A stretch of DNA of 64,000 bases from Oceanicoccus sp. (GTDB lineage Bacteria > Pseudomonadota > Gammaproteobacteria > Pseudomonadales > Dasaniaceae). Position numbers and translations under genes: made by a program. The notes under the pieces are model-generated. The model did not search any database. It was not told the DNA's origin and was given only the letters and a program-made list of their open reading frames with translations. Below, one piece after another: positions 14,399-43,177 of the stretch (position 1 is the first letter of the stretch; every line of letters starts with the position of its first letter). The stretch covers positions 9,150-73,149 of the forward strand of contig JBALTE010000011.1 of NCBI GenBank assembly GCA_036963965.1. The letters are read 5' to 3'.

Positions 14399-15628
14399 AT
14401 GGCTGAATCCGCTAGTGTAAAGAAATCCATCTGGCAGAACTCCAAATTTCTCGCCTATATGGGATCAACCACGTTCTATTCTGCTGGTTTTTCGATGCAG
14501 CAGCTCATTGTCAGCTGGCTATTGGTTGGTGTACTTGTATTGCCGGGTGATGAAGTTGGGCTGATACAAGCTGTTATCGGTATACCCGGTTTGTTTTTAA
14601 TGCTCTGGGGTGGAGCAAGTGCTGACAACAAAGACCCCCGGTCTATTCTTGTCAGTGTGTATTCAATCACCTGGCTGTTTCCGCTGATGCTAGTGGTTTG
14701 TATTTATTATGACCTGCTGAATATCTGGACGATTCTGCTGTTTGGACTTGCTGTCAGTACTGCGACTTCTTTTTCCAGTCCTGCCCAGCAGGCGATACTG
14801 AATCATGTTGCTGGTGGTGACATCCAAAAAGCGGTGACGGCTTCTACAGCTCTAGTGTTTCTGGTTCAAATGTTTTCACTTGGTTTTGCTGGCCAAATGG
14901 ACAAAATCGGCTTGAGCACCGTACTGGTTGTTCAGGCCGTGTGTATTTTACTCGGTGCTCTGATGATCATGCGGCTTAAAAAAACAGCGCCTTCACCTCA
15001 ACCACCGGGCGAGACGTCGTGGCACAGATTAATAAAGGGTTTCAGAGCAACCTACAATAACAAAAAAGTTTTTCACCTACTCGTCATCAACTTTATTTCC
15101 AGCGTTTTTAATGCCGGTGCATTTATGACCGTTGTACCGTTTGTGGTTAAGAGAGCGTACCAAGGGGATGCGCTTCAGCTCGCAACTATAATGATAATTT
15201 TCTATTTTGGCGCCACGTTAACTAATCTGGTTATGTTTAAAATTATGCCCATTGCTCGTCCAGGTCGTTGGTTTCTTGCGATGCAACTAAGTCGTGTCAT
15301 TATCTTGGTCTTGTTGTGGATAAAACCAGATTGGTGGTTATTGATCATCGCAATGTTTGCCTGGGGCTTAAATATGGGGGTAACAACCACACTATCCCGG
15401 ACGATTGTACAAGAGTCAGCAGAGCCCGAGTTCAGGGCAAGAATTCTGTCTGTTTATAGTTTGGGGCTTATTGGTAGCGCTCCAATTGGAGCAATTGTTC
15501 TCGGTAATATTATCGAGATATTTGGCACGCTTGAAGCACTGATTCCGGCCATGTTCGTTTCAGTTATTCTGTTTGTTTACGGTGTATTTTTCTCTCCCGT
15601 TTGGTCATATGCTTCACCGCGACATTGA
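14399..15628 (+). CDS. MFS transporter
   Basis: About 12 hydrophobic spans in 409 aa, with an EntS/MFS_3-like layout. Confidence 0.75.
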   Translation: MAESASVKKSIWQNSKFLAYMGSTTFYSAGFSMQQLIVSWLLVGVLVLPGDEVGLIQAVIGIPGLFLMLWGGASADNKDPRSILVSVYSITWLFPLMLVVCIYYDLLNIWTILLFGLAVSTATSFSSPAQQAILNHVAGGDIQKAVTASTALVFLVQMFSLGFAGQMDKIGLSTVLVVQAVCILLGALMIMRLKKTAPSPQPPGETSWHRLIKGFRATYNNKKVFHLLVINFISSVFNAGAFMTVVPFVVKRAYQGDALQLATIMIIFYFGATLTNLVMFKIMPIARPGRWFLAMQLSRVIILVLLWIKPDWWLLIIAMFAWGLNMGVTTTLSRTIVQESAEPEFRARILSVYSLGLIGSAPIGAIVLGNIIEIFGTLEALIPAMFVSVILFVYGVFFSPVWSYASPRH

Positions 15629-15806
15629 TAACGCTTCAGTGAACCAGCGAGATGTTATAAGCGGAAAGTTGCGGGAATATTGGCTAGTACATCGATGACT
15701 TGACACGGAGCTGATTTATGGCACTTTCGAACGCTTCGATTCTATTGTTACAATTCGATTATCACTATTCATACGTCCACCAGGCTTTATTGTACGTGAC
15801 CATAGA

Positions 15807-16040
15807 ATGAATATTTTTGTGCTCGACCAAACTATAAAAACCTGTGCCCAGTTTCATTGCGACCAGCATGTCAGCAAGATGATAGGCGCGCGTTTTGAGT
15901 CTATTGGCTTGACGCCCTTTGCCCAGGCAATGCCGGAGTCTTATAAAATTGCAGATGATCCGGTGGCGGCCGATCGAGACTTTTATTGCGGTGAAAAAGC
16001 AGACTTTGCAACATGGAAAAAACGCAAATCTCCAGACTGA
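15807..16040 (+). CDS. hypothetical protein, possibly an internally deleted remnant
   Basis: The N-terminus MNIFVLDQTIKTCAQFHCDQHVSKM and the C-terminus YCGEKADFATWKKR resemble the two ends of a longer conserved family I cannot name with certainty. The middle appears missing. Confidence 0.3.
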   Translation: MNIFVLDQTIKTCAQFHCDQHVSKMIGARFESIGLTPFAQAMPESYKIADDPVAADRDFYCGEKADFATWKKRKSPD

Positions 16041-16290
16041 TGGTTGCCGCCCACTACTGCGTAATGGCTGCACCGAGATTCGATCTTTGCTTTCCCTTGT
16101 TTAAAGTAGTGTATTAGGTTGAATATTTCGGCTACAGTGGACAAAAAAAGAGCAACAATTTTTCTATACCCTCAATCCAGATCAATGCAACAAATCCGTG
16201 ATATATGATCCGAAAGCGGTGATCGACAGGAGATGAGGTGAATATTTGGCAATACAATCACAGTTATTCTGCGAGAGGGGCGAACAAACA

Positions 16291-16764
16291 ATGGCAACAC
16301 TAAAAGTAAACGGTAAAGTAATCGAGGTGGACGTCGAAGGTGATACGCCCTTGTTATGGGTGATTCGCGAACAAATTGGACTCACTGGTACTAAATATGC
16401 CTGCGGCATTGCTCAGTGCGGTTCGTGTACCGTGCACATAGATGGCCGTCCAGTACGGTCCTGTGTTTATCCTGTCGCGGGTGTTACCGCGGACCAAGAA
16501 ATCACTACTATCGAAGGCCTTTCAGAAGAAGGTGATCATCCGGTTCAGCAAGCGTGGGCAGAACTTGATACGCCACAATGCGGTTACTGCCAGTCCGGTA
16601 TGATTATGGCGGCGGCAGCACTGCTTGATAAAACACCGAACCCGAGTGATGAGAATATCAATAGTGAAATTACCAATATTTGTCGTTGCGGCACGTTTCA
16701 GCGAGTACGAGAAGGTATTCACCTCGCAGTAGAAATCAAACATAAGTCTGCAGCGAAGGTTTAA
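16291..16764 (+). CDS. (2Fe-2S)-binding small subunit of a xanthine-oxidase-family molybdenum hydroxylase (IorA-like)
   Basis: Two cluster motifs are present: C-G-x-x-x-C-G-x-C (CGIAQCGSC) and CGYCQSG...CRCG. The ATG at 16291 gives the typical MATLKVNGK start. Confidence 0.85.
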
Positions 16765-16770
16765 GGGGAG

Positions 16771-18963
16771 ATGACTATGGCACAGGAAAAAATGCGTATA
16801 AATCGGCGTCAGTTTGTTATTGGAGCAGCCTCAACGGGTGCTGGACTATCGATTGGATTGGCTCTGCCTATGGGTGCTCAGAAGGCTTTTGCAGACGACC
16901 ACAGTGAATCGTCGACACAGGAAGTTAACGCCTGGGTTGTTATCGATCCTGATGACACGGTAACCATTAGAATTGCAAGATCTGAAATGGGGCAGGGTAC
17001 GCTAACAGGTCTTGCGCAATTGGTGGCGGAAGAGTTGGAATGTGATTGGGATAAAGTGCAGTGGGAATACCCAACCCCGGGAGAAAATTTAAAGCGCGGG
17101 CGTGTTTGGCAAAGTTTTGCCACTGGGGGCAGTCGCGGTATCCGCGGCAGCCATCAGTACGTGCGCGAAGGTGGTGCCATGGCCCGAGAAATGTTGATTG
17201 AGGCGGCTGCCAAAAAATGGGGTGTGGTCGCTGCGGACTGTACCGCAGCTGATAGCAGAATAACCCATTCACCGTCGGGAAAAACGACCACATTCGGTAA
17301 AGTAGCAAACGCTGCTGCTGGTTTAACCCCACCCAGTGAAGTAACGCTAAAAGATCCCAAGACGTGGAAAGTTATTGGCAAACCCAAGAAGCGTCTCGAC
17401 ACGTTAGAGAAATTAACGGGTAAACAAATCTACGGCGCGGATATTACGATGCCAGGTATGCTTAATGCTTCTATAAAGGCCTGCCCCGTTCACGGCGGTA
17501 AACTTGAGTCGTTTGACGCTGAAAAAGTGAGCTCAATGCCGGGGGTGAAATCTGTTATTGCCGTGGGTGATGACGCCGTTGCTGTAGTAGCTACAACATG
17601 GTGGCAGGCCAATAAAGCGTTAAATGCGCTGCCGATCACATGGGACAAAGGTGAGAATACCAAGGTGTCGAGCGCGTCAATCGACAAGTTTTTGCAAGAG
17701 GGACTTTCTGCCGATAATGCTTTTGTGGGAAATAAAGTCGGTGATGTGAAAGCAGGGCTGAAAAAGGCGTCACGTACTTACACTGCTGATTACAGTTACC
17801 CCTACCAAAATCACGCAACTATGGAACCGATGAATGCAACAGCGGTTTGGAGCAAAGAGCGTTGTGAAGTTTGGTGTCCCACGCAAAATGGTGAGGCAGC
17901 TTTGGCTGCGACCATTAGTGCCTCGGAATTGTCCTCCGAAAAATGTGATGTACACAAAGTGAGTCTCGGTGGTGGTTTTGGGCGGCGCGGCGCAACTGAC
18001 TTTGTCACACAGGCCGTGTTAATTGCTAAAACCATGCCCGGTATCCCTGTAAAGCTGCTGTGGACCCGTGAAGAGGATATGCTTCAAGGTATGTTTCATC
18101 CCGTGACCAAGGCCAGAATGACTGCTGGCTTTGATGACGACGGAAATTTGGATGCTTTACATGTGCGTATTTCCGGTCAGTCGATTCTGGCGACGCTAAT
18201 GCCTCAGGCAATAGAGAGCAACGACGGTATGGACCCCGTTGTTTTTCAGGCGATGGCCCCGGAAGGAGATCATGCTATTTCTTATACTGTGCCAAATTTG
18301 TTGGTAGACCATGCCATGCGTAATACACATATTACGCCTGGCTTCTGGCGTGGTGTAAATGTCAATCAAAATGCGATTTATATGGAGTGTTTTTTGGATG
18401 AAGTGGCGCATGAGTCCGGTCAGGATGCGCTGGCTTTCAGGCAGAAGGCAATGAAAAACCATCCTCTCGCCCTGGCGGTATTAAATAAGGCAGCATCGAT
18501 GGCTGGGTGGGGGAAACCTGCGCCGGAAGGTAGACACCTTGGCTTGGCTGTTTGTAAAGCCTTTGGCAGTTATGTGGCTGCTTGTGCCGAAATATCTGTG
18601 GATCAGGGCGAATTGACTATCCACCGTATTTTTGCGGCCACCGACCCCGGGTATGCGGTAAATCCTCAACAGATTGAGGCTCAGGTATCCGGTTCTTTTG
18701 TCTATGGTTTGTCAGCGCTGCTTTACGGGGAGTGCACTGTAAAAGACGGCCAGATCGAACAGCAAAATTTTCATGAATACCCCTCGCTAAAAATGGCGAA
18801 AATGCCGCATGTTGAGACATCAGTTATGCCATCCGGTGGATTCTGGGGTGGTGTTGGTGAGCCAACGATTGCTGTTGCTGCTCCTGCGGTGCTGAATGCT
18901 ATATTTGCAGCAACTGGGAAGCGTATTCGTCATTTGCCGATAAAGAATCAAATCCTTGGGTAG
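16771..18963 (+). CDS. molybdopterin-binding large subunit (IorB / aldehyde-oxidase-like) with a Tat signal
   Basis: Twin-arginine signal INRRQFVIGAAS. The 730-aa length and GGGFGRRG motif are typical of the aldehyde oxidase/xanthine dehydrogenase Mo-binding domain. Confidence 0.85.
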   Translation: MTMAQEKMRINRRQFVIGAASTGAGLSIGLALPMGAQKAFADDHSESSTQEVNAWVVIDPDDTVTIRIARSEMGQGTLTGLAQLVAEELECDWDKVQWEYPTPGENLKRGRVWQSFATGGSRGIRGSHQYVREGGAMAREMLIEAAAKKWGVVAADCTAADSRITHSPSGKTTTFGKVANAAAGLTPPSEVTLKDPKTWKVIGKPKKRLDTLEKLTGKQIYGADITMPGMLNASIKACPVHGGKLESFDAEKVSSMPGVKSVIAVGDDAVAVVATTWWQANKALNALPITWDKGENTKVSSASIDKFLQEGLSADNAFVGNKVGDVKAGLKKASRTYTADYSYPYQNHATMEPMNATAVWSKERCEVWCPTQNGEAALAATISASELSSEKCDVHKVSLGGGFGRRGATDFVTQAVLIAKTMPGIPVKLLWTREEDMLQGMFHPVTKARMTAGFDDDGNLDALHVRISGQSILATLMPQAIESNDGMDPVVFQAMAPEGDHAISYTVPNLLVDHAMRNTHITPGFWRGVNVNQNAIYMECFLDEVAHESGQDALAFRQKAMKNHPLALAVLNKAASMAGWGKPAPEGRHLGLAVCKAFGSYVAACAEISVDQGELTIHRIFAATDPGYAVNPQQIEAQVSGSFVYGLSALLYGECTVKDGQIEQQNFHEYPSLKMAKMPHVETSVMPSGGFWGGVGEPTIAVAAPAVLNAIFAATGKRIRHLPIKNQILG

Positions 18964-18994
18964 GGTGATATCGGCATTAGATAGCGATTATCTT

Positions 18995-19321
18995 ATGCGT
19001 TTACTCCGACAGTGTTTGGTTATTGGTTTTTTTGCCAGCGTGTTGTTTCCGCCTGTTTATGCCAGCGATCTACTAACGCAGGCCAGCGCCAATGTAAGTG
19101 CCTGTAGTAGTTGCCATCGTGGCGGTATGGGGAGCGGCGGTATGGCAGGCAGTGGAACCCAGGTAATGGGTGCGCTTAATACATTGTCGGCGGCAAGCAT
19201 CGAGGAAGCGCTGTTGCAATTTCGTTCTGGTGAGCGTGAAGGGACAGTGATGAATCGTTTGGCCCGCGGCTATTCGGACTCGGAAATCGCTGGGATGGCG
19301 AAAGTATTGGCAAGCCAGTGA
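18995..19321 (+). CDS. monohaem c-type cytochrome (FccA/SoxE-like small cytochrome)
   Basis: A signal peptide is followed by a single CSSCH haem motif and the C-terminal MNRLARGYSDSEIAGMAKVL. The start could instead be TTG 18956, which overlaps the previous gene. Confidence 0.7.
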   Translation: MRLLRQCLVIGFFASVLFPPVYASDLLTQASANVSACSSCHRGGMGSGGMAGSGTQVMGALNTLSAASIEEALLQFRSGEREGTVMNRLARGYSDSEIAGMAKVLASQ

Positions 19322-20592
19322 CCCATTTGAATCGTCGCGACATTGTTAAGGGGCTGCTGCTGGCGATGACAGCGGGGGTGGGCGCTAGTTGTGCATCCAC
19401 AAAGGGTTCATCAGCTCGAGTCGTTGTTGTTGGTGGTGGGTTTGCCGGTATGAGCTGTGCTCGTACTTTAAAAAAGTTGTCGCCAACACTGGCGGTGACA
19501 TTAGTTGAACCCAAACAAAGTTATATTGCCTGTCCGTTTAGTAATCTGGTTATTGGTAATCAGCGCAATATTGCTTCCCAGACATTTAGTTACATCGCTG
19601 CAGTTGCCGATGGTGTGACCCATATTAGACGGACGGCTGTTGCTGTTGATCCCGATGCTCATAACGTCACGCTGGATGATGGCCAAGTTCTTGGTTACGA
19701 CAGATTGGTTCTGGCCCCTGGCATTAGCCTTGATTTCGAAGTTTTACCCGGCTATGACGAGGCCGCAGCGAATGACATGCCTCACGCGTGGCTGGCGGGA
19801 ACACAAACGACACTGCTCGCACGGCAACTCGCGGCTATGGATGATGGCGGTACTGTTGTTATATCGGTGCCTGAAAACCCGTATCGCTGTCCACCCGGTC
19901 CATACGAACGTGCTAGCCTCATTGCAAATTATCTTCAAGTGTACAAACCCAAAAGCAAATTGTTGATACTCGACAGTAAAGATCGCTTTTCAAAACAAGC
20001 GCTTTTTATGGCTGCGTGGAAATCGGAATTTGGAGACCTGATTGAGTGGCAGGGACTCAAAGACGGCGCCAGAGTTGTTTCAGTTGATTCAGCGGCGATG
20101 ACGTTAACAACGGATTTTGACGTAATCAAAGCGGATGTAGCGAATGTGATTCCTCCCCAGCGGGCGGGAAAAATTGCCAGAATTAGTGACGTCGCCAATG
20201 CAAGCGGTTGGTGTCCAATAAGTGCATCGACTTTCGAGTCGAGTCTACATGCTGATATTCATGTTATTGGTGATGCCGCCATAGCCAATGCCATGCCAAA
20301 GTCGGCTTTTGCCGCCAATAGCCAGGCCAAGCTCTGTGCCTTACAAATTGCCAGATTGCTGAGCGGTCAAACCCCCGTTGATAGTAAATTAATTAATACG
20401 TGTTACAGCTTAGTAACCCCGGATTACGGAATTTCTGTAGCGGGAGTCTACAAACCAGAAGCAGAGCGCTGGCTTGAAGTTGAAGGCGCAGGAGGCGTTA
20501 GTGGCGCATCTGCACCAAGAGATGTTAGACGGGTAGAGGCTCATTATGCGCGCCAATGGTATAAGTCAATTACACAAGAGGTGTTTGGTTGA
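19318..20592 (+). CDS. fccB: flavocytochrome c sulfide dehydrogenase flavoprotein subunit-like (FccB/SoxF-like), Tat-exported
   Basis: Tat-like NRRDIVKG, an FAD fold (VVVVGGGFAG) and the redox CPFSN...YRCPPGPYERAS motifs. The GTG start overlaps the upstream stop (GTGA). Confidence 0.8.
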   Translation: MTHLNRRDIVKGLLLAMTAGVGASCASTKGSSARVVVVGGGFAGMSCARTLKKLSPTLAVTLVEPKQSYIACPFSNLVIGNQRNIASQTFSYIAAVADGVTHIRRTAVAVDPDAHNVTLDDGQVLGYDRLVLAPGISLDFEVLPGYDEAAANDMPHAWLAGTQTTLLARQLAAMDDGGTVVISVPENPYRCPPGPYERASLIANYLQVYKPKSKLLILDSKDRFSKQALFMAAWKSEFGDLIEWQGLKDGARVVSVDSAAMTLTTDFDVIKADVANVIPPQRAGKIARISDVANASGWCPISASTFESSLHADIHVIGDAAIANAMPKSAFAANSQAKLCALQIARLLSGQTPVDSKLINTCYSLVTPDYGISVAGVYKPEAERWLEVEGAGGVSGASAPRDVRRVEAHYARQWYKSITQEVFG

Positions 20593-21011
20593 TTCGCGTT
20601 TGTGCTTTTTTTTTGGTGCTCCTTCAGAATTCTATTAGTATAGCCTTTGCAGAAGATCGGGAAGATGCACTTACGTCGGAGCCGGGCCGATATGCTGTTG
20701 GTCAGAAGGTTTTTAACGATCGTGACAGAGGACATTGTTTGTTATGCCATCGGTTCAGCCGCAGCGACGAATCCTTTCAGGGTACTATCGGACCTTCGCT
20801 CGATGGTATTGCAACCAGATTGACCGCGCAGCAAATAAGGTATCGGATAGTTGATAATAGTCGGATGAATTCTCAAACGCTGATGCCCGCGTACTTTCGA
20901 ACGGACGGGCTTGTGCAGGTTGCAGCTGAATTTGTCGGGAAGACGATCTTATCGGCCCAAGATATTGAAGACCTCGTCGTTTATCTTGTTTTCGATCCGC
21001 AAGAACAGTAG
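20589..21011 (+). CDS. soxX: SoxX-like monohaem cytochrome c
   Basis: A signal peptide, a single CLLCH motif, then GPSLDG and a distal MPAY Met ligand region. The TTG start overlaps the fccB stop. Confidence 0.7.
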   Translation: MIRVCAFFLVLLQNSISIAFAEDREDALTSEPGRYAVGQKVFNDRDRGHCLLCHRFSRSDESFQGTIGPSLDGIATRLTAQQIRYRIVDNSRMNSQTLMPAYFRTDGLVQVAAEFVGKTILSAQDIEDLVVYLVFDPQEQ

Positions 21012-21032
21012 TACGTTGATGATGGAGCCACG

Positions 21033-21473
21033 ATGAAAAGGCGAACAGTAATAGTGGGTGCGGCCGTCGGTCTCGCTGTCCAGTTAGCGCCAACAGTCTT
21101 TGCCGGTAAGCTCAAAAAAACGGTGTCTGAATTTTATCGTCAAGAGACTATAACTGTCGGCAAAGTCCGTCTCAAAATACCGCCTCTAGCAGAAAATGGG
21201 AATTCTGTTTCTTTGGCGGTTGAAGTTGATAGTCCAATGACCGACGAAAACTATGTGCAAGAGATTCGAATTTTTGCCGATAAAAACCCGGTGCCAAACC
21301 TCGCTAGTTATCGGCTTTCCCCGGGCTCAGGCAAAGCTAAAGTGGCAACCAGAATTCGATTGTCAAATTCTCAGGTTATAACTGCTGTGGCGCGTATGAA
21401 TGATGGCACGCTGTGGTCGGGCTCTGCTAAAACAATAGTTACGCTGGCGGCTTGTGTCGAGCCACTACTTTAG
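21033..21473 (+). CDS. SoxY-related sulfur-carrier protein with a non-canonical C-terminal arm (..TLAACVEPLL)
   Basis: Tat-like signal (MKRRTVIVGAAVG) and the SoxY core (LKIPPLAENGNSVSLAVEV). The single C-terminal Cys codon is at 21453-21455, in AACVE rather than GGCGG. Confidence 0.75.
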   Translation: MKRRTVIVGAAVGLAVQLAPTVFAGKLKKTVSEFYRQETITVGKVRLKIPPLAENGNSVSLAVEVDSPMTDENYVQEIRIFADKNPVPNLASYRLSPGSGKAKVATRIRLSNSQVITAVARMNDGTLWSGSAKTIVTLAACVEPLL

Positions 21474-21481
21474 GCAATGTG

Positions 21482-21808
21482 ATGAAAGTAAGAATTTCTA
21501 TTCCCCCGCAGGCTGATAGAGGAGAGTTCCTCGAAATTAAGACGCTTGCTTCACATCCGATGCATAGTGGTTTCAGGCGCGATGCGATTGGCGCATTAGT
21601 CCCTCGAGATATTATTGAAATCTTTCGTTGTGAATACAATGAGAAAATTATTTTTGAAGCCGAGTTTGGACCGGGCACTGCTGCAAACCCCTTTCTATCA
21701 TTTTACATTCGCGCTGAAAAAACGGGTGAGGTAAAATTCACCTGGATTGATCAGCACGGAAAAAAGACCGAAGAAATTAAATTTCTCGACGTTGTGGATA
21801 AACATTGA
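21482..21808 (+). CDS. soxZ: SoxZ-like protein
   Basis: MKVRISIPPQADRGEFLEIKTLASHPMHSGFR is the typical SoxZ N-terminus. The protein is about 108 aa and immediately follows the SoxY-like gene. Confidence 0.8.
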   Translation: MKVRISIPPQADRGEFLEIKTLASHPMHSGFRRDAIGALVPRDIIEIFRCEYNEKIIFEAEFGPGTAANPFLSFYIRAEKTGEVKFTWIDQHGKKTEEIKFLDVVDKH

Positions 21809-22584
21809 TGAAAGTGGGGCGTTTGCTGTTTTCGCTGCTCATCATTGTCGAGATGACGGTGGCAATAGCATCCGACATTAAATTGTCACCGCGATCGGGC
21901 TATGAATTTCAATCTATTGATACACAGTCCATGCAAGAGGATGATTTTGAAAACCCTGGTATGTTGTGGGTTGATATGGGTGAGCTTTACTATAACGAGC
22001 CAGCGGGAAAAATGGATCAATCTTGCGCTGATTGTCATGGAGAATTCCCCAAGTCGCTGGCGACGTCGTTTCCGAAAAACAACCACCATCTCGAAGCTGT
22101 TGTGAATCTGACCTCGCAGATCCAGCATTGCAGAACAGTGCACCAGAAGGCAGAACCTATTGATTATGAAAGTGAAACATCGCTAGCGTTGACTGTATAC
22201 CTTGCTAGTCGGGCGCGTGGGGAAATGGTTAATCAGATCGATAGTTCTCCGGTCGATCAGCTAAAGGCGTCAATCGAAAACGGTCGCGTTTACTTTCATC
22301 AGCGTAAGGGGCAGCTCAATCTTAGCTGCAGAAATTGTCATGATAGCAGTGTGGGGAAGATGTTACGGGGGGACTTGATTAGCCAGGGGCAGAGTAACGG
22401 TTACCCAATCTATCGATTAGAGTGGCAATCTCTCGGTTCTCTCCATCGTCGATTTCGCTCCTGTGATATCGGTGTGAAAGCACAAGCACAAGCACTTGGT
22501 AGTAGTATTTATATTAACCTGGAAGCGTATCTAAAAGAGAGGGGTGGTGATTTGCTTATTGAAACACCGGCGGTTCGGCGTTAG
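21808..22584 (+). CDS. soxA: SoxA-like dihaem cytochrome c
   Basis: Signal peptide, two CxxCH motifs (CADCH, CRNCH) and the conserved distal Cys region LHRRFRSCD. The start ATG shares one nucleotide with the soxZ stop. Confidence 0.8.
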   Translation: MKVGRLLFSLLIIVEMTVAIASDIKLSPRSGYEFQSIDTQSMQEDDFENPGMLWVDMGELYYNEPAGKMDQSCADCHGEFPKSLATSFPKNNHHLEAVVNLTSQIQHCRTVHQKAEPIDYESETSLALTVYLASRARGEMVNQIDSSPVDQLKASIENGRVYFHQRKGQLNLSCRNCHDSSVGKMLRGDLISQGQSNGYPIYRLEWQSLGSLHRRFRSCDIGVKAQAQALGSSIYINLEAYLKERGGDLLIETPAVRR

Positions 22585-22624
22585 CTGATATGGCCTAAGG
22601 TATTAACTTGGGTTTGTAGGTTAA

Positions 22625-22650
22625 GGTAGCAAACCATAGGGCTTGCTACC
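22625..22650. terminator. stem-loop between convergent genes
   Basis: GGTAGCAA (22625-22632) pairs with TTGCTACC (22643-22650) around a 10-nt loop. It lies between the soxA stop and the convergent 22737 stop. Confidence 0.45.
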
Positions 22651-22736
22651 TCACTGACCATACGCACTACCAATCGGATAAATCGGTAGCGCGCTAGCCT
22701 TCTATTGACTAAAAGACTTTCGGTTTTGGTAGCAGA

Positions 22737-23897
22737 CTACTCTTCTATTGAAAAAGTAAGGCCTGCATTTTCTTCAAGTCGTTTGATCAATTCAGGTCCC
22801 ATGGACGAGGCTGTTGTCCAGCACCCACCGCTGGTGCGATCTTTGGATATGTCGAGAGCTAAACAAACAGCACTTTCGGCCAGCATTTTACTAGTCGATC
22901 CATAGCCAGGGTCCATATCACCTTTGACGCAAGCTTGTAATTTTTCACCATCATCATTCGAGCCAACAAAGATAATGTCATAATACCCGGCTTTGCGTTC
23001 TTCCCGGGATGGGCCATCACCGGGTTTTAGATTTGCATCCATTGCAAATGGGTCAGCCGCAGCTTTATCTGCTTGTGCTGGGTCGCCGGGCAACATCATC
23101 ATTTCATCATATTGTAAATCTTCACCCCATTGATGCTGCATGAGATAATTTGAGCGATGCACAGCTTTAGTATTGATCATAGCCATCATAAAAGGTCCAA
23201 CCCAGCTTTCCACCGCTTCATCATAATAAGGCTGATTGCCATCTGGTTGTGCTGGACCTTCAAAACCTGGAGTTTGTGCGAAAGGTGACACTAAAAGACC
23301 CATGATGGATGGGTCTTTCTGGACCGCTGCGGTAGTTGCATTTCCAGAAGCAACAGTACCACCAGAGGCACTCCCCTTCATGTCACGCACGCGTCCACGA
23401 ATACGAGGCAAAACATGTCCCAGACGTGTTTTGGCTTGTTCTTGTAAATAGAAAACACCTAAGTCAGTTGGAATTGAGTCAAATCCGCAAGAGAATACAA
23501 TGCGCGCACCTGATTTTGCGGCACTGTCATTAAGACCAGTGACCTGCTGAGCGATCCAGTTGGGTTCGCCACACAAATCGACATAATCTGTACCAGCATT
23601 TGCGCAGGCTGCAATAACTTTATCGCCATAAAGTTGGTAAGGACCAACTGTCGTGATCAAAACTTTGGTCTTCTCTACCATCGCTCTCACTTCATCGTCA
23701 TTGTTGGAATCACATACGACAAGCGGTGTATCCGCCGGGGCGCCGATGGCATCACGGACTTCTTCCAGTTTGCTTTTAGATCGACCAGCCATGCCCCATT
23801 TAATGTTCGTGCCGTATTGTTCCGTCATATATTCTGCAACAAGTTTGCCTGTAAAACCCGTTGCGCCATAAATCAATATATCAAATTCTCTGACCAT
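22737..23897 (-). CDS. saccharopine dehydrogenase-like NAD(P)-binding family protein
   Basis: N-terminal Rossmann motif ILIYGATGFTGKLVAEY. The 386-aa length matches this family. Confidence 0.75.
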   Translation of the reverse strand: MVREFDILIYGATGFTGKLVAEYMTEQYGTNIKWGMAGRSKSKLEEVRDAIGAPADTPLVVCDSNNDDEVRAMVEKTKVLITTVGPYQLYGDKVIAACANAGTDYVDLCGEPNWIAQQVTGLNDSAAKSGARIVFSCGFDSIPTDLGVFYLQEQAKTRLGHVLPRIRGRVRDMKGSASGGTVASGNATTAAVQKDPSIMGLLVSPFAQTPGFEGPAQPDGNQPYYDEAVESWVGPFMMAMINTKAVHRSNYLMQHQWGEDLQYDEMMMLPGDPAQADKAAADPFAMDANLKPGDGPSREERKAGYYDIIFVGSNDDGEKLQACVKGDMDPGYGSTSKMLAESAVCLALDISKDRTSGGCWTTASSMGPELIKRLEENAGLTFSIEE

Positions 23898-25754: not shown

Positions 25755-26123
25755 ATGCCTGACAGAAAAGTCGTCGCAAAAGAGTTAGCTGAAATTTTCA
25801 AAATTGTTGCAAACCCGGACCGAATTCGAATTATCGAAGAGCTACGAGCTGGTGAAAAAGATGTCAAAACACTTGTTGAAGTACTCGAACTACCCGGTCC
25901 TCGTGTCTCGCAACATTTGAGTTTGATGCGTGCTCATCGCATCGTCGAAGAACGCAGAGATGGTAGGCACCACCACTACAGTTTAACCCAACCCGACATG
26001 GCGAACTGGATCATTGAGGGTCTGGATTTTGTTGAGGGTAGGCTCAATGGTGTGAGCAAAGTTAGCATCACCAAAGCACGAGAACTTTGGTCGGCACAGA
26101 AAAGTAACCAAACGATTAAATAA
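25755..26123 (+). CDS. ArsR/SmtB family transcriptional regulator
   Basis: Winged-HTH signature FKIVANPDRIRIIEELRAGEKDVKTLVEVLELPGPRVSQHLSLMR. Confidence 0.85.
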   Translation: MPDRKVVAKELAEIFKIVANPDRIRIIEELRAGEKDVKTLVEVLELPGPRVSQHLSLMRAHRIVEERRDGRHHHYSLTQPDMANWIIEGLDFVEGRLNGVSKVSITKARELWSAQKSNQTIK

Positions 26124-26151
26124 CCGCTAATTAAACCAAGAGGTCAGTAAA

Positions 26152-26829
26152 ATGCCAAAATTTGCAACAGGTGTGATTCGCTTTCAAAACGAAGTCTATC
26201 CACAGAAGAAAGAACTGTTTGAGAAACTGAGTAAAGGTCAGGCACCAGAAGCGCTTTTTATCACCTGTTCTGATTCCAGAATAGAAACCGCGATGATCAC
26301 ACAAACAGATCCTGGCGAACTTTTTATCTGTCGTAACGCCGGAAATATTGTCCCTCCCCACATGACTCAAGCGGGCGGCATGACAGCCTCGATTGAATTC
26401 GCAGTGGCAGCACTCGAGGTGCCACACATTGTGATTTGCGGTCATACAGAATGTGGCGCAATGAAAGGCGCAATGGACCTTGATAGCCTGGCATCCTTGC
26501 CTCACGTAAAGGAATGGTTAAGTTACACCAAAGCCGCCGTTGATGTTGTCGACGCAATCGCACCAGAAGGCGCTAGTGATGAAACTCGTATGCAATTATT
26601 ACTTGAACAGAACGTCATATTGCAACTCCAGCACCTGAAAACTCATCCAAGTGTTGCCGCCAGATTGGCGAAGGGAAACCTGAGGCTTCACGGCTGGGTC
26701 TATGATATCAAGACCGGTGACGTAAAAGCATTTGATGAAGTCGAAAATAAATTCGTTCCGGTTGACGCTCGTTATGCAAAAGAGGTTGCCGCAATGGCTG
26801 CTGCGTCAGCGTCAGGCTGTTCTGACTGA
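26152..26829 (+). CDS. beta-class carbonic anhydrase
   Basis: CSDSR and HTECGA zinc-ligand motifs with typical spacing. Confidence 0.9.
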   Translation: MPKFATGVIRFQNEVYPQKKELFEKLSKGQAPEALFITCSDSRIETAMITQTDPGELFICRNAGNIVPPHMTQAGGMTASIEFAVAALEVPHIVICGHTECGAMKGAMDLDSLASLPHVKEWLSYTKAAVDVVDAIAPEGASDETRMQLLLEQNVILQLQHLKTHPSVAARLAKGNLRLHGWVYDIKTGDVKAFDEVENKFVPVDARYAKEVAAMAAASASGCSD

Positions 26830-26865
26830 TCCACACCAATCAACACAACAAGTCCTTAAGGAGTA

Positions 26866-28533
26866 ATGTTCGTGAAATTTTTTGACTTTTCCAATATTCG
26901 TGGTGATATTTTTGGCGGGCTTACGGCGGGTATTATTGCTTTGCCACTCGCTTTGGCGTTTGGTGAGGCGTCTGGAGCCGGACCAATCGCTGGCATCTGG
27001 GGAGCGATTTTTGTTGGATTTTTTGCGTCTCTTTTTGGGGGTACCGGTTCTAACGTATCTGGTCCTACGGGGCCAATGGTTGTCGTTTTTGCCGGTATCT
27101 TTGCAACCCTGACCGGGAATCCGGCGCTTGTTTTTGCTGCGGTTGTATTGGCTGGTGTGTTGCAGATTTTGTTGGGTGTTTTCAAAATGGGCCAGTATAT
27201 CCGGCTGGTTCCATACCCGGTTGTATCAGGTTTTATGAGCGGTATTGGTTGCATCATTATTGCACTGCAACTGTCTCGCATATTCGGTCATGAACCGGAC
27301 GGTGGTGGCACGATACCTGCGCTGACAGCCATCCCTGGCGCGGTGATGGACCCGAATATGGCCGCATTGGTCATCGGCATTCTTACTCTGACAGTTATAT
27401 TCTCGTGGCCAAAGAGCCTTGGGAAAATGATTCCAGCACCACTGGCGGCACTGGTGATTGGTACCGTAACCAGTTTGTTCATCAGCGGCGCGCCAATTCT
27501 AGGCGCTATTCCTACCGGCTTTCCATCGCTGGTAATACCTGAATTCACGTCGGCTACCTTTGCCATCGTACTTGAGGCTGCAATCCTGCTCGCAGTTCTG
27601 GGGGCGATAGATAGCCTTCTGACCTCACTGGTTGCAGATAACATGACCCGAACACGGCATGATTCAGACAAAGAGCTGATTGGACAAGGTATCGGTAATA
27701 CATTTGCAGGGCTTTTCGGTGCAATTCCAGGTGCCGGCGCGACCATGAGGACCGTTGTAAACATTCGAACAGGAGGACAAACAAAGATATCCGGGATGAT
27801 CCACGCAGGCTTACTACTGTTAATCGTTGTCAGCCTATCGCCCCTTGCCTCACAAATTCCCCACGCAGTATTAGCGGGCATTCTGATCAAAGTTGGATAC
27901 GATATTATTGATATCGGTTATCTCAAGCGGGCCCACAAAGGCCCACGATTAGACCTCGTATTGATGGCGATGGTGCTGTTGCTGACTGTATTTGTTGACC
28001 TGATCACGGCGGTAGCAGCAGGTGTAGTGCTTGCCGCGCTTGCTTTCGTTAAGCAACTTGCAGACGAGCAGCTGAGACAATTTGGGGATCCGAGTGATGC
28101 GGCCTCAGAGTCTACCCCTGAAGAGCTTGAACTCCTTGCTAAAGCAAAGGGACAGGTAACAATCTTTGAGTTTGGTGGGCCATTAAGTTTTGGTGCAGCA
28201 GCTGATATGGGTCACACTGTACGAGAACGAACCAAGAAAAAATCTGCAGCAATCATTCTGGATTTTTCCAAGGTGCCCTTTATCGATGTGTCAGCAAGTC
28301 GCGCAGTGGAAACGATAATAACCGACGCTACGGCTGCGGGAAAAACAGTCTACGAAACAGGCATGAGTGATTCAGTAAGAAGCATCCTTATTGGCTTGAA
28401 TGAAGAAGATAATTTCCATGTTATCACCAGCCACAACAATCGTCTGGAAGCATTGCGCGCTGCGGTTGAGGATACGCTTGGACGGGTAAAAGACGGCGGT
28501 CCAGATAAACCAGAAACCGATTCTACGGGCTAA
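26866..28533 (+). CDS. SulP family anion transporter with a C-terminal STAS domain (BicA-like)
   Basis: N-terminal DIFGGLTAGIIALPLALAF, multiple TM spans and a C-terminal STAS-like region (VTIFEFGGPLSFGAA). Confidence 0.85.
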   Translation: MFVKFFDFSNIRGDIFGGLTAGIIALPLALAFGEASGAGPIAGIWGAIFVGFFASLFGGTGSNVSGPTGPMVVVFAGIFATLTGNPALVFAAVVLAGVLQILLGVFKMGQYIRLVPYPVVSGFMSGIGCIIIALQLSRIFGHEPDGGGTIPALTAIPGAVMDPNMAALVIGILTLTVIFSWPKSLGKMIPAPLAALVIGTVTSLFISGAPILGAIPTGFPSLVIPEFTSATFAIVLEAAILLAVLGAIDSLLTSLVADNMTRTRHDSDKELIGQGIGNTFAGLFGAIPGAGATMRTVVNIRTGGQTKISGMIHAGLLLLIVVSLSPLASQIPHAVLAGILIKVGYDIIDIGYLKRAHKGPRLDLVLMAMVLLLTVFVDLITAVAAGVVLAALAFVKQLADEQLRQFGDPSDAASESTPEELELLAKAKGQVTIFEFGGPLSFGAAADMGHTVRERTKKKSAAIILDFSKVPFIDVSASRAVETIITDATAAGKTVYETGMSDSVRSILIGLNEEDNFHVITSHNNRLEALRAAVEDTLGRVKDGGPDKPETDSTG

Positions 28534-34632: not shown

Positions 34633-36117
34633 TTATCGCCCTTTAAAGAAAGAGCCTAGAATACCGCGAACTAGTTTTCCGGTCATTTGCCGACCTAGAC
34701 TTCTCGCGATGCTTTTTACAAATGCTTCGCCAACACTTTGTCGCTTGCGGCCAACCGATTTAGCTTTGGGCGCCTTTTGTATTCGTGATGTTTTTGTTGT
34801 TGCCTCTTCCGCCTCTTTTGCCGCTTCTTCTGAGCGTTGCATCAGGATTTCGTAAGCGGATTCACGATCGACCGACTTATCATACTTATCTTTAACGGGG
34901 CTGCTAAGTTTGACCTCTTCTCGTTCGGCCTTTTTGGCGGGTCCGATTCGTGAGTACGGGGGTTTAATCATAACCCGTTGCACCACGCTGGGTGCACCAT
35001 TTTTTAGTAGTGTTGATACCAGTGCTTCACCAACCGACATTTCGGTAATAACGTCGCGTGTTGAAAAATTGGCATTAGCGCGGAACGTGTCCGCCGCAGC
35101 TCTAACCGCTTTTTGCTCTTTAGGAGTAAACGCGCGCAAAGCGTGCTGGACACGATTGCCAAGCTGGCCAAGCACCGAATCAGGGATGTCGCTTGGACTT
35201 TGCGACACAAAGTAGACGCCAACCCCTTTTGATCGGATTAATCGAACCACTTGTTCTATTTTTGAAATGAGGGCTTTCGGAGCGTCTTTAAACAACAAGT
35301 GAGCTTCATCGAAAAAGAACACCAATACAGGTTTGTCTGGGTCGCCAATCTCGGGTAGGTTTTCAAATAATTCAGACAGCAGCCAAAGCAACAATGTCGA
35401 ATATAGCTTGTTGTTTTGTATGAGTTTATTGGCGGCAAGTACGTTAACGTAACCACGACCATCGGGGGTAGTGCGCATTAAGTCATTTAGTTCTAACATT
35501 GGCTCGCCGAAAAATTGTTTGGCGCCGGCTCGCTCAAGAACCAATAGTCGCCGCTGGATCGCGCCTACAGAAGAAGTAGAAACGTTGCCGTATAGTATGC
35601 GCAAATCCGCCGCGTTTTCGGCAACATGCTGTAACATGGCTTTTAGATCTTTCAAATCGAGTAATAAGATGCCTTGATCGTCAGCCACAGCAAAAGCAAT
35701 GGTTAAAATACCTTCCTGAGTTTCATTAAGCCCCATTAATTGAGCAAGTAACAATGGCCCCATATCAGAAACAGTAGCGCGAATCGGGTGGCCTTGTTTT
35801 CCATACACATCCCAAAAAATAGTTGGCACGCCAGCCCATGCATCCTCTGGTAAGCCCAGAATAGAGAGGCGTTCGTTAACTTTTGGATGAGGTTTCCCTG
35901 CTTGACTGATGCCTGATATATCGCCTTTCACATCGGCTAAAAAGACGGGAACACCTTGCCGAGAGAAATTTTCAGCTAAGGCCTGTAAGGTCACAGTTTT
36001 CCCTGTGCCTGTTGCTCCCGCAATTAGGCCGTGGCGGTTAGCGCGCTTCAATTCAAGAGAAATGTGTTGGTCATGCGCATTTGCCGAGTAACCCAGCAAG
36101 ATAGAATCAGTGCTCAT
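34633..36117 (-). CDS. HerA-like P-loop ATPase, DUF853 (YjgR-like)
   Basis: Walker A GATGTGKT, Walker B-like VLVFFFDEAH and a basic Lys/Arg-rich C-terminal tail. Confidence 0.75.
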   Translation of the reverse strand: MSTDSILLGYSANAHDQHISLELKRANRHGLIAGATGTGKTVTLQALAENFSRQGVPVFLADVKGDISGISQAGKPHPKVNERLSILGLPEDAWAGVPTIFWDVYGKQGHPIRATVSDMGPLLLAQLMGLNETQEGILTIAFAVADDQGILLLDLKDLKAMLQHVAENAADLRILYGNVSTSSVGAIQRRLLVLERAGAKQFFGEPMLELNDLMRTTPDGRGYVNVLAANKLIQNNKLYSTLLLWLLSELFENLPEIGDPDKPVLVFFFDEAHLLFKDAPKALISKIEQVVRLIRSKGVGVYFVSQSPSDIPDSVLGQLGNRVQHALRAFTPKEQKAVRAAADTFRANANFSTRDVITEMSVGEALVSTLLKNGAPSVVQRVMIKPPYSRIGPAKKAEREEVKLSSPVKDKYDKSVDRESAYEILMQRSEEAAKEAEEATTKTSRIQKAPKAKSVGRKRQSVGEAFVKSIARSLGRQMTGKLVRGILGSFFKGR

Positions 36118-39333: not shown

Positions 39334-39498
39334 GTTTTAGTAAACCACTTTACACGGTTCGGTTTGGCTGCGCAGACTCTTAAAGTCCGAACCGCGCTCT
39401 AGAAAATTCGTTAGCCTCATTTCATCACTGTTTAGGTTGTGGAGTATATGGGGTAAAGTCACTCTAAAACTGCGTTTATGGGCGTTAGAGAGCTTCGA

Positions 39499-40830
39499 AT
39501 GAATAAGAAAAAAATCTGCGTTGTTGGAGGCGGCCCGGCAGGGCTCACAACAACAAAAACCCTGGTTGCTGCAGGACATGAGGTCGACTGTATCGAGATG
39601 TCGCCTTATATTGGTGGCCACTGGGTACTGGAAAACCCCAATGGACGTTCTGCTGCATATCGGTCACTGACGACCAATACCACCAAAAATATGAGTCGCT
39701 TTAGTGACTATGAGCTGCCTGAAGATTGGCCGACCTATCCCGGTCATGAGCAGCTGCGACAGTGGCTGGAAAGTTATGTTGATTATTTTTCCTTCCGCAA
39801 ACGCATTCAAACCAGCACAGAAGTCGTGGCCACCCAGCAGCGTGATGACGGTGGTTGGACGGTAACATTGCGACGAGGCGACAGTCAGCTGACAGAAGAT
39901 GTCGAATATGATGCACTGGTAGCCGCAAGTGGCAGTTATTGGGATTACCAAATACCGCAGTGGCAGGGCACTTTTGATGGCACTATTATTCATGCCCAAG
40001 ACTATATCGATACCGACAAACCTTTTGCCACAGAGGGTGCTAATGTGGTGGTGGTGGGTATTGGTAACACCGGTTGTGAGCTTTCATGTGAAATTTCACG
40101 AGCGGGAGCTGCCTCGGTACACCTTTCGGCTCGGGGTGGGGCTTGGATTCTACCGCGGTTAATCGATGGTAAACCGGCTTCAGACAGCAGCCCTATGGTT
40201 CATCCCTGTGACCCGGTTCCAGCCTTATTTCGCTGGACACCGGCCGCCTATCGCGAGCGTCTATTTGAATGGGTTGCCGGCAAAAAAATCCGTCAGATGC
40301 ATGCCGCGCGTATGGCACGTTTTCATGAATTGGGTTTGCCACCAGCGCCGGAGAACCCGATATTCAATCGGCCGACGATTTCTGACGATATCCTGGGGTA
40401 TCTGGAGCGCGGTGCAATTACAGCGCAGCCTGAGATTGAGCGTCTCAGTGGCCAAAATGTCATTTTTGCCAATGGCGAATCGGTTAGGGCAGATTTTGTG
40501 CTGTGTGCCACGGGTTATCGGCTGAGTTTCCCTTACATAGACAAAACGGTTGTTGATACTAGCGATAACGACCTTAACTTGTTTTGTGGAATAGTGCCGC
40601 CGCAGTGTGACAATTTGTTTTTTATTGGCGTGAGCCGTCCCCTTGGGTCGTTCTGGCCGCTGGCCGAGGCGCAGGCGCAATTTGTCGGTGAACTACTTGC
40701 CGGTCGTTATCGATTGCCCCCGGCAGAACAACTGCTGCAGCGATCCGCTCCGGCGCTCAATCGTGTCTCCACGAGCCCGGGTTTGTATGGTCTGTCGCTA
40801 CGCGAAGAGCTAGCTCGAGGAGCTTGCTAA
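39499..40830 (+). CDS. class B flavin-containing monooxygenase (FMO-like)
   Basis: GGGPAGL FAD motif, FMO-identifying F-x-G-x3-H-x3-Y (FDGTIIHAQDY) and the second dinucleotide motif GIGNTGCE. Confidence 0.85.
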   Translation: MNKKKICVVGGGPAGLTTTKTLVAAGHEVDCIEMSPYIGGHWVLENPNGRSAAYRSLTTNTTKNMSRFSDYELPEDWPTYPGHEQLRQWLESYVDYFSFRKRIQTSTEVVATQQRDDGGWTVTLRRGDSQLTEDVEYDALVAASGSYWDYQIPQWQGTFDGTIIHAQDYIDTDKPFATEGANVVVVGIGNTGCELSCEISRAGAASVHLSARGGAWILPRLIDGKPASDSSPMVHPCDPVPALFRWTPAAYRERLFEWVAGKKIRQMHAARMARFHELGLPPAPENPIFNRPTISDDILGYLERGAITAQPEIERLSGQNVIFANGESVRADFVLCATGYRLSFPYIDKTVVDTSDNDLNLFCGIVPPQCDNLFFIGVSRPLGSFWPLAEAQAQFVGELLAGRYRLPPAEQLLQRSAPALNRVSTSPGLYGLSLREELARGAC

Positions 40831-41001
40831 AAACACTGGTTCAATATGGCGGATGCGTGGAGAGGGAATACCATAATAAGTCCACCATGGATTGTCTGTG
40901 CGCAAAAGAGTATTGTGATATTCGCGATACAGGCTGACAGGGAGTAATGAACTCTGTAGGCAAAAAATTGTAAGAACTAGAATTGAGTTGGAGGTGCATC
41001 T

Positions 41002-42114: not shown

Positions 42115-42179
42115 TTTGGATACGAGTAATAAAAACTGGCAAGCTATCGTCGTAGTTCAATAAAAGGAGTAAGCATAAT

Positions 42180-42668
42180 ATGTCTAAATTTCTAAACTCT
42201 GGAGACGTTTTTCCCTCCATCACCTTGAATTTGGCGGGTGGGGGTACCTTCTCACTGCCGGACGATATTGAAACGCCAATGACGATCGCCTTGTTCTATC
42301 GAGGTCACTGGTGACCTTTTTGTCGGCGGTTATTAGCCGGTTATAATGAGCGCCGTGCTGCGTTCTTAGAAGAAGGTGTAAGTATCATTGCCGGTACGGT
42401 CGATACTGAAGAGCAAACCCTCGAAATATCTCAAGACTGGGACTTTCCAGTCGCGTATGGCATGACTCGCGCTGACGGTGATGCAATGGGGGCATGGTGG
42501 GAGCAACGACGTGATCATATTCAGCCGAGCGAGTTCTTACTGACTAAAAGCGGCAAGGTGATGATGTCAACCTACAGTAATTCGCCGATTGGCCGGATGG
42601 ATCCTGCGGAGGCACTGGTGTTAATTAAATTTTTGAACGCACAGCGGGCCAAGGCTAAGCAGGGCTAA
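42180..42668 (+). CDS. peroxiredoxin-like (AhpC/TSA, PRX_like2-type) thioredoxin-fold protein with an in-frame TGA at codon 45: candidate selenoprotein, or a recent pseudogene
   Basis: The ATG at 42180 has AGGAG at 42165-42169. The frame is open except for the TGA at 42312-42314 and ends at TAA 42666-42668. Context is ALFYRGHW-TGA-PFCRR. The paralogue at 45439..46116 reads VVFYRGGWCPYCNV. The track lists only the last 68 aa (42462..42668). Confidence 0.6.
42322..42341 (+). promoter_or_regulatory. candidate SECIS-like hairpin downstream of the in-frame TGA
   Basis: GUCGGC (42322-42327) pairs with GCCGGU (42336-42341): four G-C pairs plus two G-U wobbles. The 8-nt apical loop GGUUAUUA starts 13 nt after the UGA. 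Flanking U-rich and A/U stretches could extend the stem with bulges. Confidence 0.35.
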
Positions 42669-42675
42669 TGTACCT

Positions 42676-42715
42676 ATAGGACTCTGCTTCCCGCTGAGGT
42701 GAAGCAGAGTCCTAT
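42676..42715 (+). terminator. perfect 15-bp stem-loop after the peroxiredoxin-like ORF
   Basis: ATAGGACTCTGCTTC (42676-42690) pairs with GAAGCAGAGTCCTAT (42701-42715) around a 10-nt loop. There is no strong T-run. Confidence 0.5.
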
Positions 42716-42831
42716 CCTTGAAATTGTTCTATGTTGTATCAGTACATCATACCTTTAACACCACAACCATTATTTGTGTTTCCCGCCTCTATATACGCGT
42801 CCGTATTTTTAATGAAAATGGCACGTCAAAA

Positions 42832-43176: not shown

Positions 43177-43177
43177 T

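Follow-up and report, generated by a model that had tools for sequence, protein, structure and literature searches.

We describe an operon of eight consecutive open reading frames (ORFs) that joins a molybdenum hydroxylase of the xanthine-oxidase family to a flavocytochrome c sulfide dehydrogenase and to Sox proteins built around a non-canonical sulfur carrier, here called SoxY'. The operon lies in a 64,000-nucleotide stretch of DNA (the window; contig JBALTE010000011.1 of GenBank assembly GCA_036963965.1) from a marine gammaproteobacterium, a metagenome-assembled genome (MAG) of Oceanicoccus sp. It occupies window positions 16291-22584 on the forward strand and, according to the ORF map and profile searches, reads iorA-iorB-fccA-fccB-soxX-soxY'-soxZ-soxA. 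Within one IorB subfamily the ior-sox link is both ancestral and widespread, and it is nearly obligatory for carriers that have an AAC-x-E arm, as SoxY' does. The operon is a new marine gammaproteobacterial member of a cluster type that has been recorded and left unexplained; its existence will be no surprise to Sox specialists. What is new here is the breadth of the link in the IorB subfamily, the near-obligate tie to SoxY', and the reduction of the module to a core of IorAB and SoxY'Z.

The linkage was surveyed from both of its ends. An IorB alignment was used as the query against one genome per species, and the content of each locus was read from tblastn matches and ORF maps. The best 80 of more than 591 matches were analyzed (62-79% IorB identity); these loci are the most similar to the query, and the counts describe this IorB subfamily rather than the much larger IorB family. 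At 60 of the 80 loci, soxY'Z lies directly downstream of iorAB on the same strand. Three loci are cut off behind the first module gene downstream of iorAB, fccA or soxX (a partial fccB follows in L023), three more are too short to tell, and 14 carry iorAB without sox genes. With the three truncated loci counted as linked, sox genes are found directly downstream of IorB in 63 of 77 informative species genomes. The hosts of the 80 loci belong to the Alpha-, Beta- and Gammaproteobacteria and to the Methylomirabilota. A complete 5.85-Mb genome has an IorB orthologue with 76% identity in an identical eight-gene array with unrelated flanks.

In the reverse survey, metagenome contigs were scanned with an alignment of SoxY' homologues, and a contig was considered informative if it extended at least 4.5 kb upstream of soxY'. 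The iorAB genes were present upstream of soxY' in 19 of 21 such contigs, and nine further contigs break inside iorB. The two exceptions (L084 and L124) are stand-alone soxXY'ZA or soxY'ZA clusters. Homologues of SoxY' with the arm variants AACIDLG and AACGIVL sit in the same array. The original prediction had staked itself on the ior and sox halves staying together in other genomes, and they do so from either direction. With over 591 matches to IorB and over 582 contigs with SoxY', the module occurs in at least several hundred species-level genomes. It is present in full on plasmid pNMS14P1 of Methylobacterium sp. NMS14P by NCBI annotation (L165), and SoxY' matches on replicons H1/H2 of Neorhizobium galegae place at least the carrier gene in a cultured strain. 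Misassembly or chance adjacency is ruled out, since the order of the array is repeated in complete genomes and plasmids. Clustering of the flanking ORFs of 82 loci revealed no family shared beyond one genus, no conserved accessory or regulatory gene, and no recurrent soxB. Because the flanks are unrelated between genera, the module is self-contained and has evidently moved between lineages.

The module varies in its periphery. The full form with fccB, whether or not fccA is detectable, accounts for 43 of the 80 surveyed loci, and a form lacking fccAB for 13, mostly betaproteobacterial. A minimal form that consists of iorAB-soxY'Z only occurs in one small clade (L022, L053 and L071). The core of the module is therefore IorAB plus SoxY'Z, with SoxXA and FccAB absent from some lineages. 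In a few loci fccAB has shifted to the end of the module, and fccA moves together with fccB (L063/L080); fccA was never detected where fccB is absent, and many loci with fccB have no detectable fccA. On a rough neighbour-joining tree, the linked state is spread over the whole IorB subfamily. The unlinked copies comprise a Chromatiales clade, a Congregibacter pair, Magnetovibrio and two or three singletons, and their hosts belong mainly to sulfur-oxidizer lineages (Chromatiales, Ectothiorhodospiraceae, Thiogranum, Magnetovibrio and Congregibacter). In unlinked loci of the Chromatiales type (L006, L007, L010, L011, L013, L015 and L018), XdhC and MobA-like maturation genes for the molybdenum cofactor (Moco) follow directly after iorAB, with only a partial XdhC before the contig end in L010. 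The same pair is also found upstream of a linked Hyphomonas locus (L069), and XdhC only is seen at L061, which ends after fccA. Since these maturation genes adjoin both linked and unlinked loci, they show no complementary distribution with the sox genes. In one MAG, a molybdate-type ABC transporter (periplasmic binding protein, permease, and ATPase with a TOBE domain; L164, 520-3025, minus strand) lies divergently beside the module, which fits a demand for molybdenum.

All eight genes that had been called from the window are present at their proposed positions on the forward strand (Table 1). Most of the proposed junctions also stand, namely the GTGA overlap at 19318-19321, the TTGA overlap at 20589-20592, the gaps of 21 and 8 nt, and a one-base overlap at 21808 (TGATG). 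Two do not. With the NCBI start at 16777, the gap between iorA and iorB is 12 nt, not 6 nt; the 728-residue IorB that begins there, two codons downstream of the longer ORF, is 100% identical to an NCBI protein (P0001), and the 730-residue form has no exact database match. The suggested overlap at 18956 also falls away, as the start of fccA is most likely the ATG at 18995, where a signal peptide beginning MRLLRQ would set in, leaving 31 nt to iorB. The leaders listed in Table 1 were judged by inspection of the N-termini, not by a signal-peptide predictor. All eight proteins are presumably periplasmic, with the leaderless IorA and SoxZ travelling with signal-bearing partners. Together with the tight junctions, this bears out the earlier description of one compact periplasmic unit.

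Table 1. Features of the ior-sox operon and its borders in the window
Feature	Position	Strand	Properties and evidence
iorA-like small subunit, 2x[2Fe-2S]	16291..16764	+	157 aa; no signal peptide; Fer2_2 3.4e-26, Fer2 3e-8
IorB-like molybdopterin large subunit, xanthine-oxidase family	16777..18963 (alternative ATG 16771)	+	728 aa; twin-arginine (Tat) signal; MoCoBD_2-MoCoBD_1-MoCoBD_2, permuted
FccA-like monohaem cytochrome c	18995..19321	+	108 aa; Sec signal; CSSCH and Met conserved; no Pfam match; best PDB match 5N1T_B 3.3e-9
FccB, flavoprotein of flavocytochrome c sulfide dehydrogenase	19318..20592	+	424 aa; Tat signal; FCSD_central (PF21706) 1.8e-47, FCSD-flav_bind (PF09242) 3e-25
SoxX, monohaem cytochrome c	20589..21011	+	140 aa; Sec signal; TIGR04485 72 bits (cut-off 61)
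SoxY', SoxY-related carrier with AAC-V-E arm	21033..21473	+	146 aa; Tat signal; PF13501 9.5e-30
SoxZ, partner of SoxY'	21482..21808	+	108 aa; no signal; PF08770 1.3e-26; TIGR04490 87 (cut-off 76)
SoxA, dihaem cytochrome c	21808..22584	+	258 aa; Sec signal; TIGR04484 184.7 (cut-off 110)
Upstream intergenic region, presumed promoter/leader	16041..16290	+	role presumed from position only
Structured intergenic region between the operon and a convergent gene (22737-23897, minus strand)	22585..22736	.	minimum free energy -48.7 kcal/mol

By its sequence, the molybdenum enzyme is a two-subunit IorAB/AldH-type member of the xanthine-oxidase family. The length of IorA is that of the NCBI gene call, and all eight of its cysteines are 99-100% conserved in 79 orthologues (11-79 orthologues were used per family for these counts). 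IorB begins with a twin-arginine leader that carries an RRQF motif (MRINRRQFVIGAAS). Its QNHATMEP, GGGFGRR and GEP (GVGEPT) motifs are invariant in 16 IorB sequences and align with those of a solved structure, 8GY3_C; the Glu of the GEP motif we take to be the catalytic Glu of the xanthine-oxidase family. With isoquinoline 1-oxidoreductase and the membrane-bound aldehyde dehydrogenase AldFGH (8GY3), the enzyme shares a permuted MoCoBD large subunit with a Tat signal, a small subunit with two [2Fe-2S] clusters, and the lack of a FAD subunit, as no FAD-binding subunit is encoded among the eight operon genes. It differs from them in having no trihaem cytochrome subunit and in belonging to an unusually conserved, sox-linked subfamily: the mean column identity of IorB is 78%, versus approximately 40-55% for the Sox proteins. 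IorB reached no cut-off of the NCBIfam equivalogs searched (XdhA, PaoC, CODH, glyceraldehyde dehydrogenase and others), and the name isoquinoline 1-oxidoreductase is an automatic label of the Joint Genome Institute (JGI). A second, distant iorAB pair, with IorB approximately 25% identical, occurs at L025 (155-2800, plus strand), 9 kb upstream of the sox-linked pair.

The 108-residue cytochrome and the flavoprotein are read as an FccAB pair because their best matches are both chains of the Thioalkalivibrio flavocytochrome c 5N1T (for FccB, 5N1T_A at 3.5e-129 and 1FCD_A at 1e-115), and FccAB is classed on these matches as a regular member of the flavocytochrome c sulfide dehydrogenase family. 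C72, C191 and C362 of FccB are 100% conserved in orthologues and C340 is 93% conserved; the first three presumably correspond by position to Cys42, Cys161 and Cys337 of the Allochromatium protein 1FCD, that is, the FAD-linking cysteine and the redox pair. The unit shares a matching FccB, the monohaem subunit (5N1T_B), and the FAD-linking and redox cysteines with the flavocytochromes c of Thioalkalivibrio paradoxus (5N1T) and Allochromatium vinosum (1FCD), but its fccAB genes sit between the molybdenum enzyme and the sox genes and are missing in about a quarter of the module variants. The CLLCH motif of SoxX is 100% conserved. In SoxA, the two CxxCH motifs and Cys108 and Cys219, the counterparts of the haem-ligating cysteines in the SoxA family, are 98-100% conserved. 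Across the operon, the cysteines checked (Fe-S, haem-binding, haem-ligand, FccB and carrier) are 98-100% conserved with the exception of C340 of FccB.

SoxY' ends in TLAACVEPLL instead of GGCGG. It scored 94.8 against a cut-off of 125 on the model of true SoxY (TIGR04488) and 168.7 against a cut-off of 172 on the model for SoxY-related proteins with an AACIE arm (TIGR04487), 3 bits short; NCBI applies the latter name to SoxY' homologues at approximately 50% identity. SoxY' has the AAC-[IV]-E arm and an adjacent SoxZ gene, 8 nt downstream. The failed true-SoxY model and the arm (LAACVEPLL) establish the carrier as one of the non-canonical AAC-x-E type, as had been claimed. C141 and the RR motif of SoxY' are invariant, as is the T-x-A-A-C portion of the arm in 19 diverse homologues. 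In most loci the arm reads (L/I)-A-A-C-[I/V/L/T]-[E/D] followed by 0-4 residues, and a minority ends in AAC plus two or three hydrophobic residues. A library-wide search with the SoxY' profile returned 349 cluster representatives at E <=1e-30. Five family members of 252-271 aa (P0260, P0319, P0340, P0350 and P0379) have approximately the combined length of SoxY' and SoxZ and may be fusions. The quinoprotein dehydrogenase-associated SoxYZ-like carrier TIGR04557 resembles SoxY'Z in being a non-canonical carrier beside a periplasmic non-Sox dehydrogenase, but it is a SoxY-SoxZ fusion, whereas the window has separate genes that scored 65.6 and 42.5 against a cut-off of 140.

SoxB and SoxCD had been described as missing from the operon, and they are. 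No SoxB or SoxC candidate was found among the operon genes or any ORF of at least 400 aa in the window, neither appears in the Pfam list for 10 kb on either side in the source contig, and no protein of the Oxidored_molyb type (the SoxC family) occurs among the scanned window ORFs. Compared with the canonical system of Paracoccus pantotrophus, SoxXAYZB(CD), the window has SoxX, SoxZ and SoxA proteins that pass their equivalog cut-offs, a periplasmic location, and a carrier with a single reactive cysteine near its C-terminus, but it is without SoxB, SoxCD and a GGCGG SoxY, and has a xanthine-oxidase-family molybdenum enzyme added. Because the GGCGG SoxY, SoxB and SoxCD all fail, the unit is not to be filed as a Sox thiosulfate-oxidizing system.

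The original prediction knew of no described link between a molybdenum hydroxylase and the Sox carrier system; this was wrong. Kappler and Nouwens recorded in 2013 a second sox cluster, soxX2Y2Z2A2F2 (Snov_1982-1977), in Starkeya novella, without SoxB or SoxCD, and noted that the operon also encodes a xanthine-oxidase-family molybdenum enzyme, Snov_1975/1976 (PMC3797975). The S. novella cluster resembles the window in having two genes each for the molybdenum enzyme and for a SoxF-like flavocytochrome c, together with soxX2Y2Z2A2, in one operon that lacks SoxB and SoxCD. The host differs, being a soil alphaproteobacterium rather than a marine gammaproteobacterium. A congener of S. novella (now Ancylobacter novellus), Ancylobacter defluvii (L073), has the identical eight-gene order, with an IorB approximately 64% identical to that of the window. 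From gene order and this congener, we infer that the window unit is orthologous to Snov_1975-1982. Elsewhere, an 'isoquinoline 1-oxidoreductase' and a flavocytochrome c that SoxYZ flanks both appear in a paper on SAR324, which draws no connection between them, and neither molybdenum nor xanthine-oxidase-family enzymes come up in a survey of divergent SoxY proteins from 2024 (PMC11237559). Our literature search returned no paper that connects ior with sox genes by name, refers to the AACIE arm or gives a function for the module. The description of the pathway as biochemically uncharacterized therefore holds for the literature searched.

We tentatively propose, with somewhat less than even confidence, that IorAB oxidizes sulfur carried on the SoxY' cysteine and thereby does the job of SoxCD. 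Reduced sulfur would be captured on the single cysteine of SoxY'Z, in the AAC-x-E/D arm. FccAB would oxidize sulfide to sulfane sulfur, and SoxXA would form the oxidative S-S link to the carrier, both passing electrons to c-type cytochromes. Tat-exported IorAB could then oxygenate the carrier-bound sulfur with oxygen drawn from water, the step that falls to SoxCD in the canonical pathway, and the electrons of IorAB would leave via the two [2Fe-2S] clusters to the operon cytochromes. Release of the product would proceed without SoxB. In this scheme IorAB and SoxY'Z would form the core partnership, with SoxXA and FccAB as loading modules. The likeness to SoxCD is a proposed functional analogy only: both are periplasmic molybdoenzymes beside SoxYZ that would take oxygen from water and give electrons to cytochrome c, but SoxC belongs to the sulfite-oxidase family and IorB to the xanthine-oxidase family, and SoxCD has the dihaem SoxD where IorAB has [2Fe-2S] clusters. 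In favour of the proposal, it is the carrier rather than the cytochromes that stays with iorAB in the minimal loci, and both of the sulfur-handling enzymes are conserved. That SoxXA and FccAB are almost always present, and that unlinked orthologues occur mainly in sulfur-oxidizer lineages, points more towards inorganic sulfane sulfur as what is carried. In a broader form, sox-linked IorB would be a carrier-dependent, sulfur-oxygenating molybdenum hydroxylase, the first xanthine-oxidase-family member that acts on protein-bound sulfane sulfur, and would add to SoxCD and the cytoplasmic Dsr/sHdr systems a third way of oxidizing sulfane sulfur, one that is widespread among soil rhizobia and marine heterotrophs; we regard this extension as rather unlikely.

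Several observations weigh against oxidation of carrier-bound sulfur by IorAB. We know of no xanthine-oxidase-family enzyme that acts on sulfur or on a protein-bound substrate. The solved structure closest to IorB, with a full-length match at 1.3e-75, is 8GY3_C, the large subunit of a Gluconobacter membrane aldehyde dehydrogenase. Sox-linked and unlinked IorB differ at a single alignment column, and IorB may for that reason have its own substrate. With 3-7 residues between it and the C-terminus, the carrier cysteine may fit poorly into a deep molybdenum funnel, and the operon encodes no hydrolase for the release of sulfate. In S. novella, the second cluster was expressed very weakly on glucose, methanol and thiosulfate by quantitative reverse-transcription PCR and proteomics, with the SoxAX2 and SoxYZ2 proteins undetected, and the authors suggested that it is either without functional significance or needed under other conditions (PMC3797975). 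In a Bradyrhizobium that has two soxY genes, thiosulfate oxidation required only soxY1, the copy in the canonical locus, and a soxY2 deletion reportedly had no thiosulfate phenotype (PMC5748708, which summarizes earlier work). The ior-sox module is present in many Bradyrhizobium genomes and soxY2 is presumably its AAC-x-E carrier, although a cluster look-up with a Bradyrhizobium SoxY' gave no USDA110 locus tag. As S. novella barely expresses the cluster and the Bradyrhizobium soxY2 deletion is silent on thiosulfate, thiosulfate is probably not the physiological substrate.

Some of these observations would be accommodated by an ordinary role for the enzyme. IorAB might be a periplasmic aldehyde or N-heterocycle dehydrogenase that acts on a free substrate and shares the electron route of Sox and Fcc, with co-location reflecting co-regulation. 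The Gluconobacter match and the near identity of linked and unlinked IorB agree with this, as does the fact that IorAB has no cytochrome subunit of its own and so needs an external acceptor. We nevertheless consider it improbable, since the minimal variants retain SoxY'Z, not cytochromes, beside iorAB, the carrier protein is left without a role, and the presence of iorAB on 19 of 21 SoxY' contigs is far tighter than is usual for shared regulation. Alternatively, the roles could be reversed, such that FccAB and SoxXA load SoxY'Z, which in turn donates persulfide in the periplasm to install or repair the terminal Mo=S ligand of IorAB; IorAB would be the client and not the catalyst. Desulfo xanthine oxidase is reactivated by sulfide in vitro, and such a donor would explain why the core is IorAB plus SoxY'Z with variable loaders, why SoxB and SoxCD are not required, and why IorB is the same whether linked or unlinked. 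However, six genes including three cytochromes would be a heavy cost for a trace demand for sulfur, the periplasmic relatives PaoABC and AldFGH have no known comparable system, and XdhC/MobA-like genes near both linked and unlinked loci show no complementarity, so that we give this reversal the same low likelihood as the free-substrate role.

As one option, the original prediction had named an organosulfur or thio-aldehyde substrate handled on the carrier cysteine. IorAB would then oxidize a carbon adduct of that cysteine, for example the thiohemiacetal formed with an aldehyde or the mixed disulfide formed with an organic thiol. There are aldehyde dehydrogenases within the IorB lineage, the SoxYZ-like family TIGR04557 is named for its association with a periplasmic quinoprotein dehydrogenase, and a role in carbon or organosulfur metabolism has been put forward for divergent SoxY proteins (PMC11237559). 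This option is less probable again, as FccAB, with its three catalytic cysteines, and SoxXA, with its Cys-ligated haems, are conserved in most loci and argue for an inorganic sulfur input, and no organosulfur genes recur in the flanks. Finally, the cluster could be a redundant, decaying and functionless sox duplicate, as raised for S. novella, for which the very low expression in three growth conditions, the undetected SoxAX2 and SoxYZ2 proteins (PMC3797975), and the absence of a thiosulfate phenotype in the Bradyrhizobium soxY2 mutant could be cited. This reading is contradicted by the conservation data and is very improbable: gene order is kept over the Alpha-, Beta- and Gammaproteobacteria and Methylomirabilota, the checked cysteines and the IorB columns are conserved to the degree given above, and the SoxY' arm is distinct and conserved, not a degraded GGCGG.

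The breadth and intactness of the module thus contradict the sole published assessment that we found, which leans towards no functional significance, and conservation marks IorAB together with the AAC-x-E carrier as the combination to test. Genetically tractable hosts exist in Bradyrhizobium, Mesorhizobium, Methylobacterium, Neorhizobium and Ancylobacter/Starkeya. If the molybdenum enzyme does act on carrier-bound sulfur, the chemistry of the xanthine-oxidase family would be extended and a missing oxidation step would be supplied for 'SoxCD-less' heterotrophs. If the carrier instead services the sulfido ligand of IorAB, it would be part of the first periplasmic Moco repair system.

Scans of the operon borders yielded few signals. 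No sigma-70-like site above chance was detected in the region directly upstream of iorA, no shared motif emerged when 250 nt of upstream sequence was aligned for five loci, the window and the four closest to it, and a search of positions 15000-23500 against Rfam at E values up to 1 gave zero matches, the Moco riboswitch included. Within the operon, promoter-like and terminator-like sites were not found above the expectation from shuffled sequences. A terminal stem-loop facing a convergent gene had been proposed; the 152-nt tail 3' of soxA does fold into hairpins that are more stable than those of shuffles (z = -2.9), but the scan found no T-tract terminator in it, and since the T-run is missing the tail is not a textbook intrinsic terminator.

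Genes within 10 kb of the operon include a major facilitator superfamily (MFS) transporter, a saccharopine-dehydrogenase-like protein, a pyridine-nucleotide disulfide oxidoreductase and a trio of ArsR, carbonic-anhydrase and SulP genes. NCBI calls a 77-aa ORF upstream of iorA (15807-16040, plus strand) that has no Pfam match and a homologue only in L001, the window's own contig, and may not be a real gene. Neither this ORF nor the upstream MFS transporter is co-conserved with the module in the compared loci. The trio (25755-28533, plus strand) consists of an ArsR-type regulator of 122 aa, a beta-carbonic anhydrase and a SulP/STAS transporter in tandem; it lies 3 kb downstream of the operon with two convergent genes between and has no evident link to the module. 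Further along, four adjoining genes for an FMO-like flavin monooxygenase, a TauD-family dioxygenase, a PhyH-family dioxygenase and a decarboxylase dependent on pyridoxal phosphate (39478-45384, plus strand) may form an amine or organosulfur catabolic island, and a HerA-like helicase (HerA_C, 727 bits) is encoded at 34633-36117 on the minus strand.

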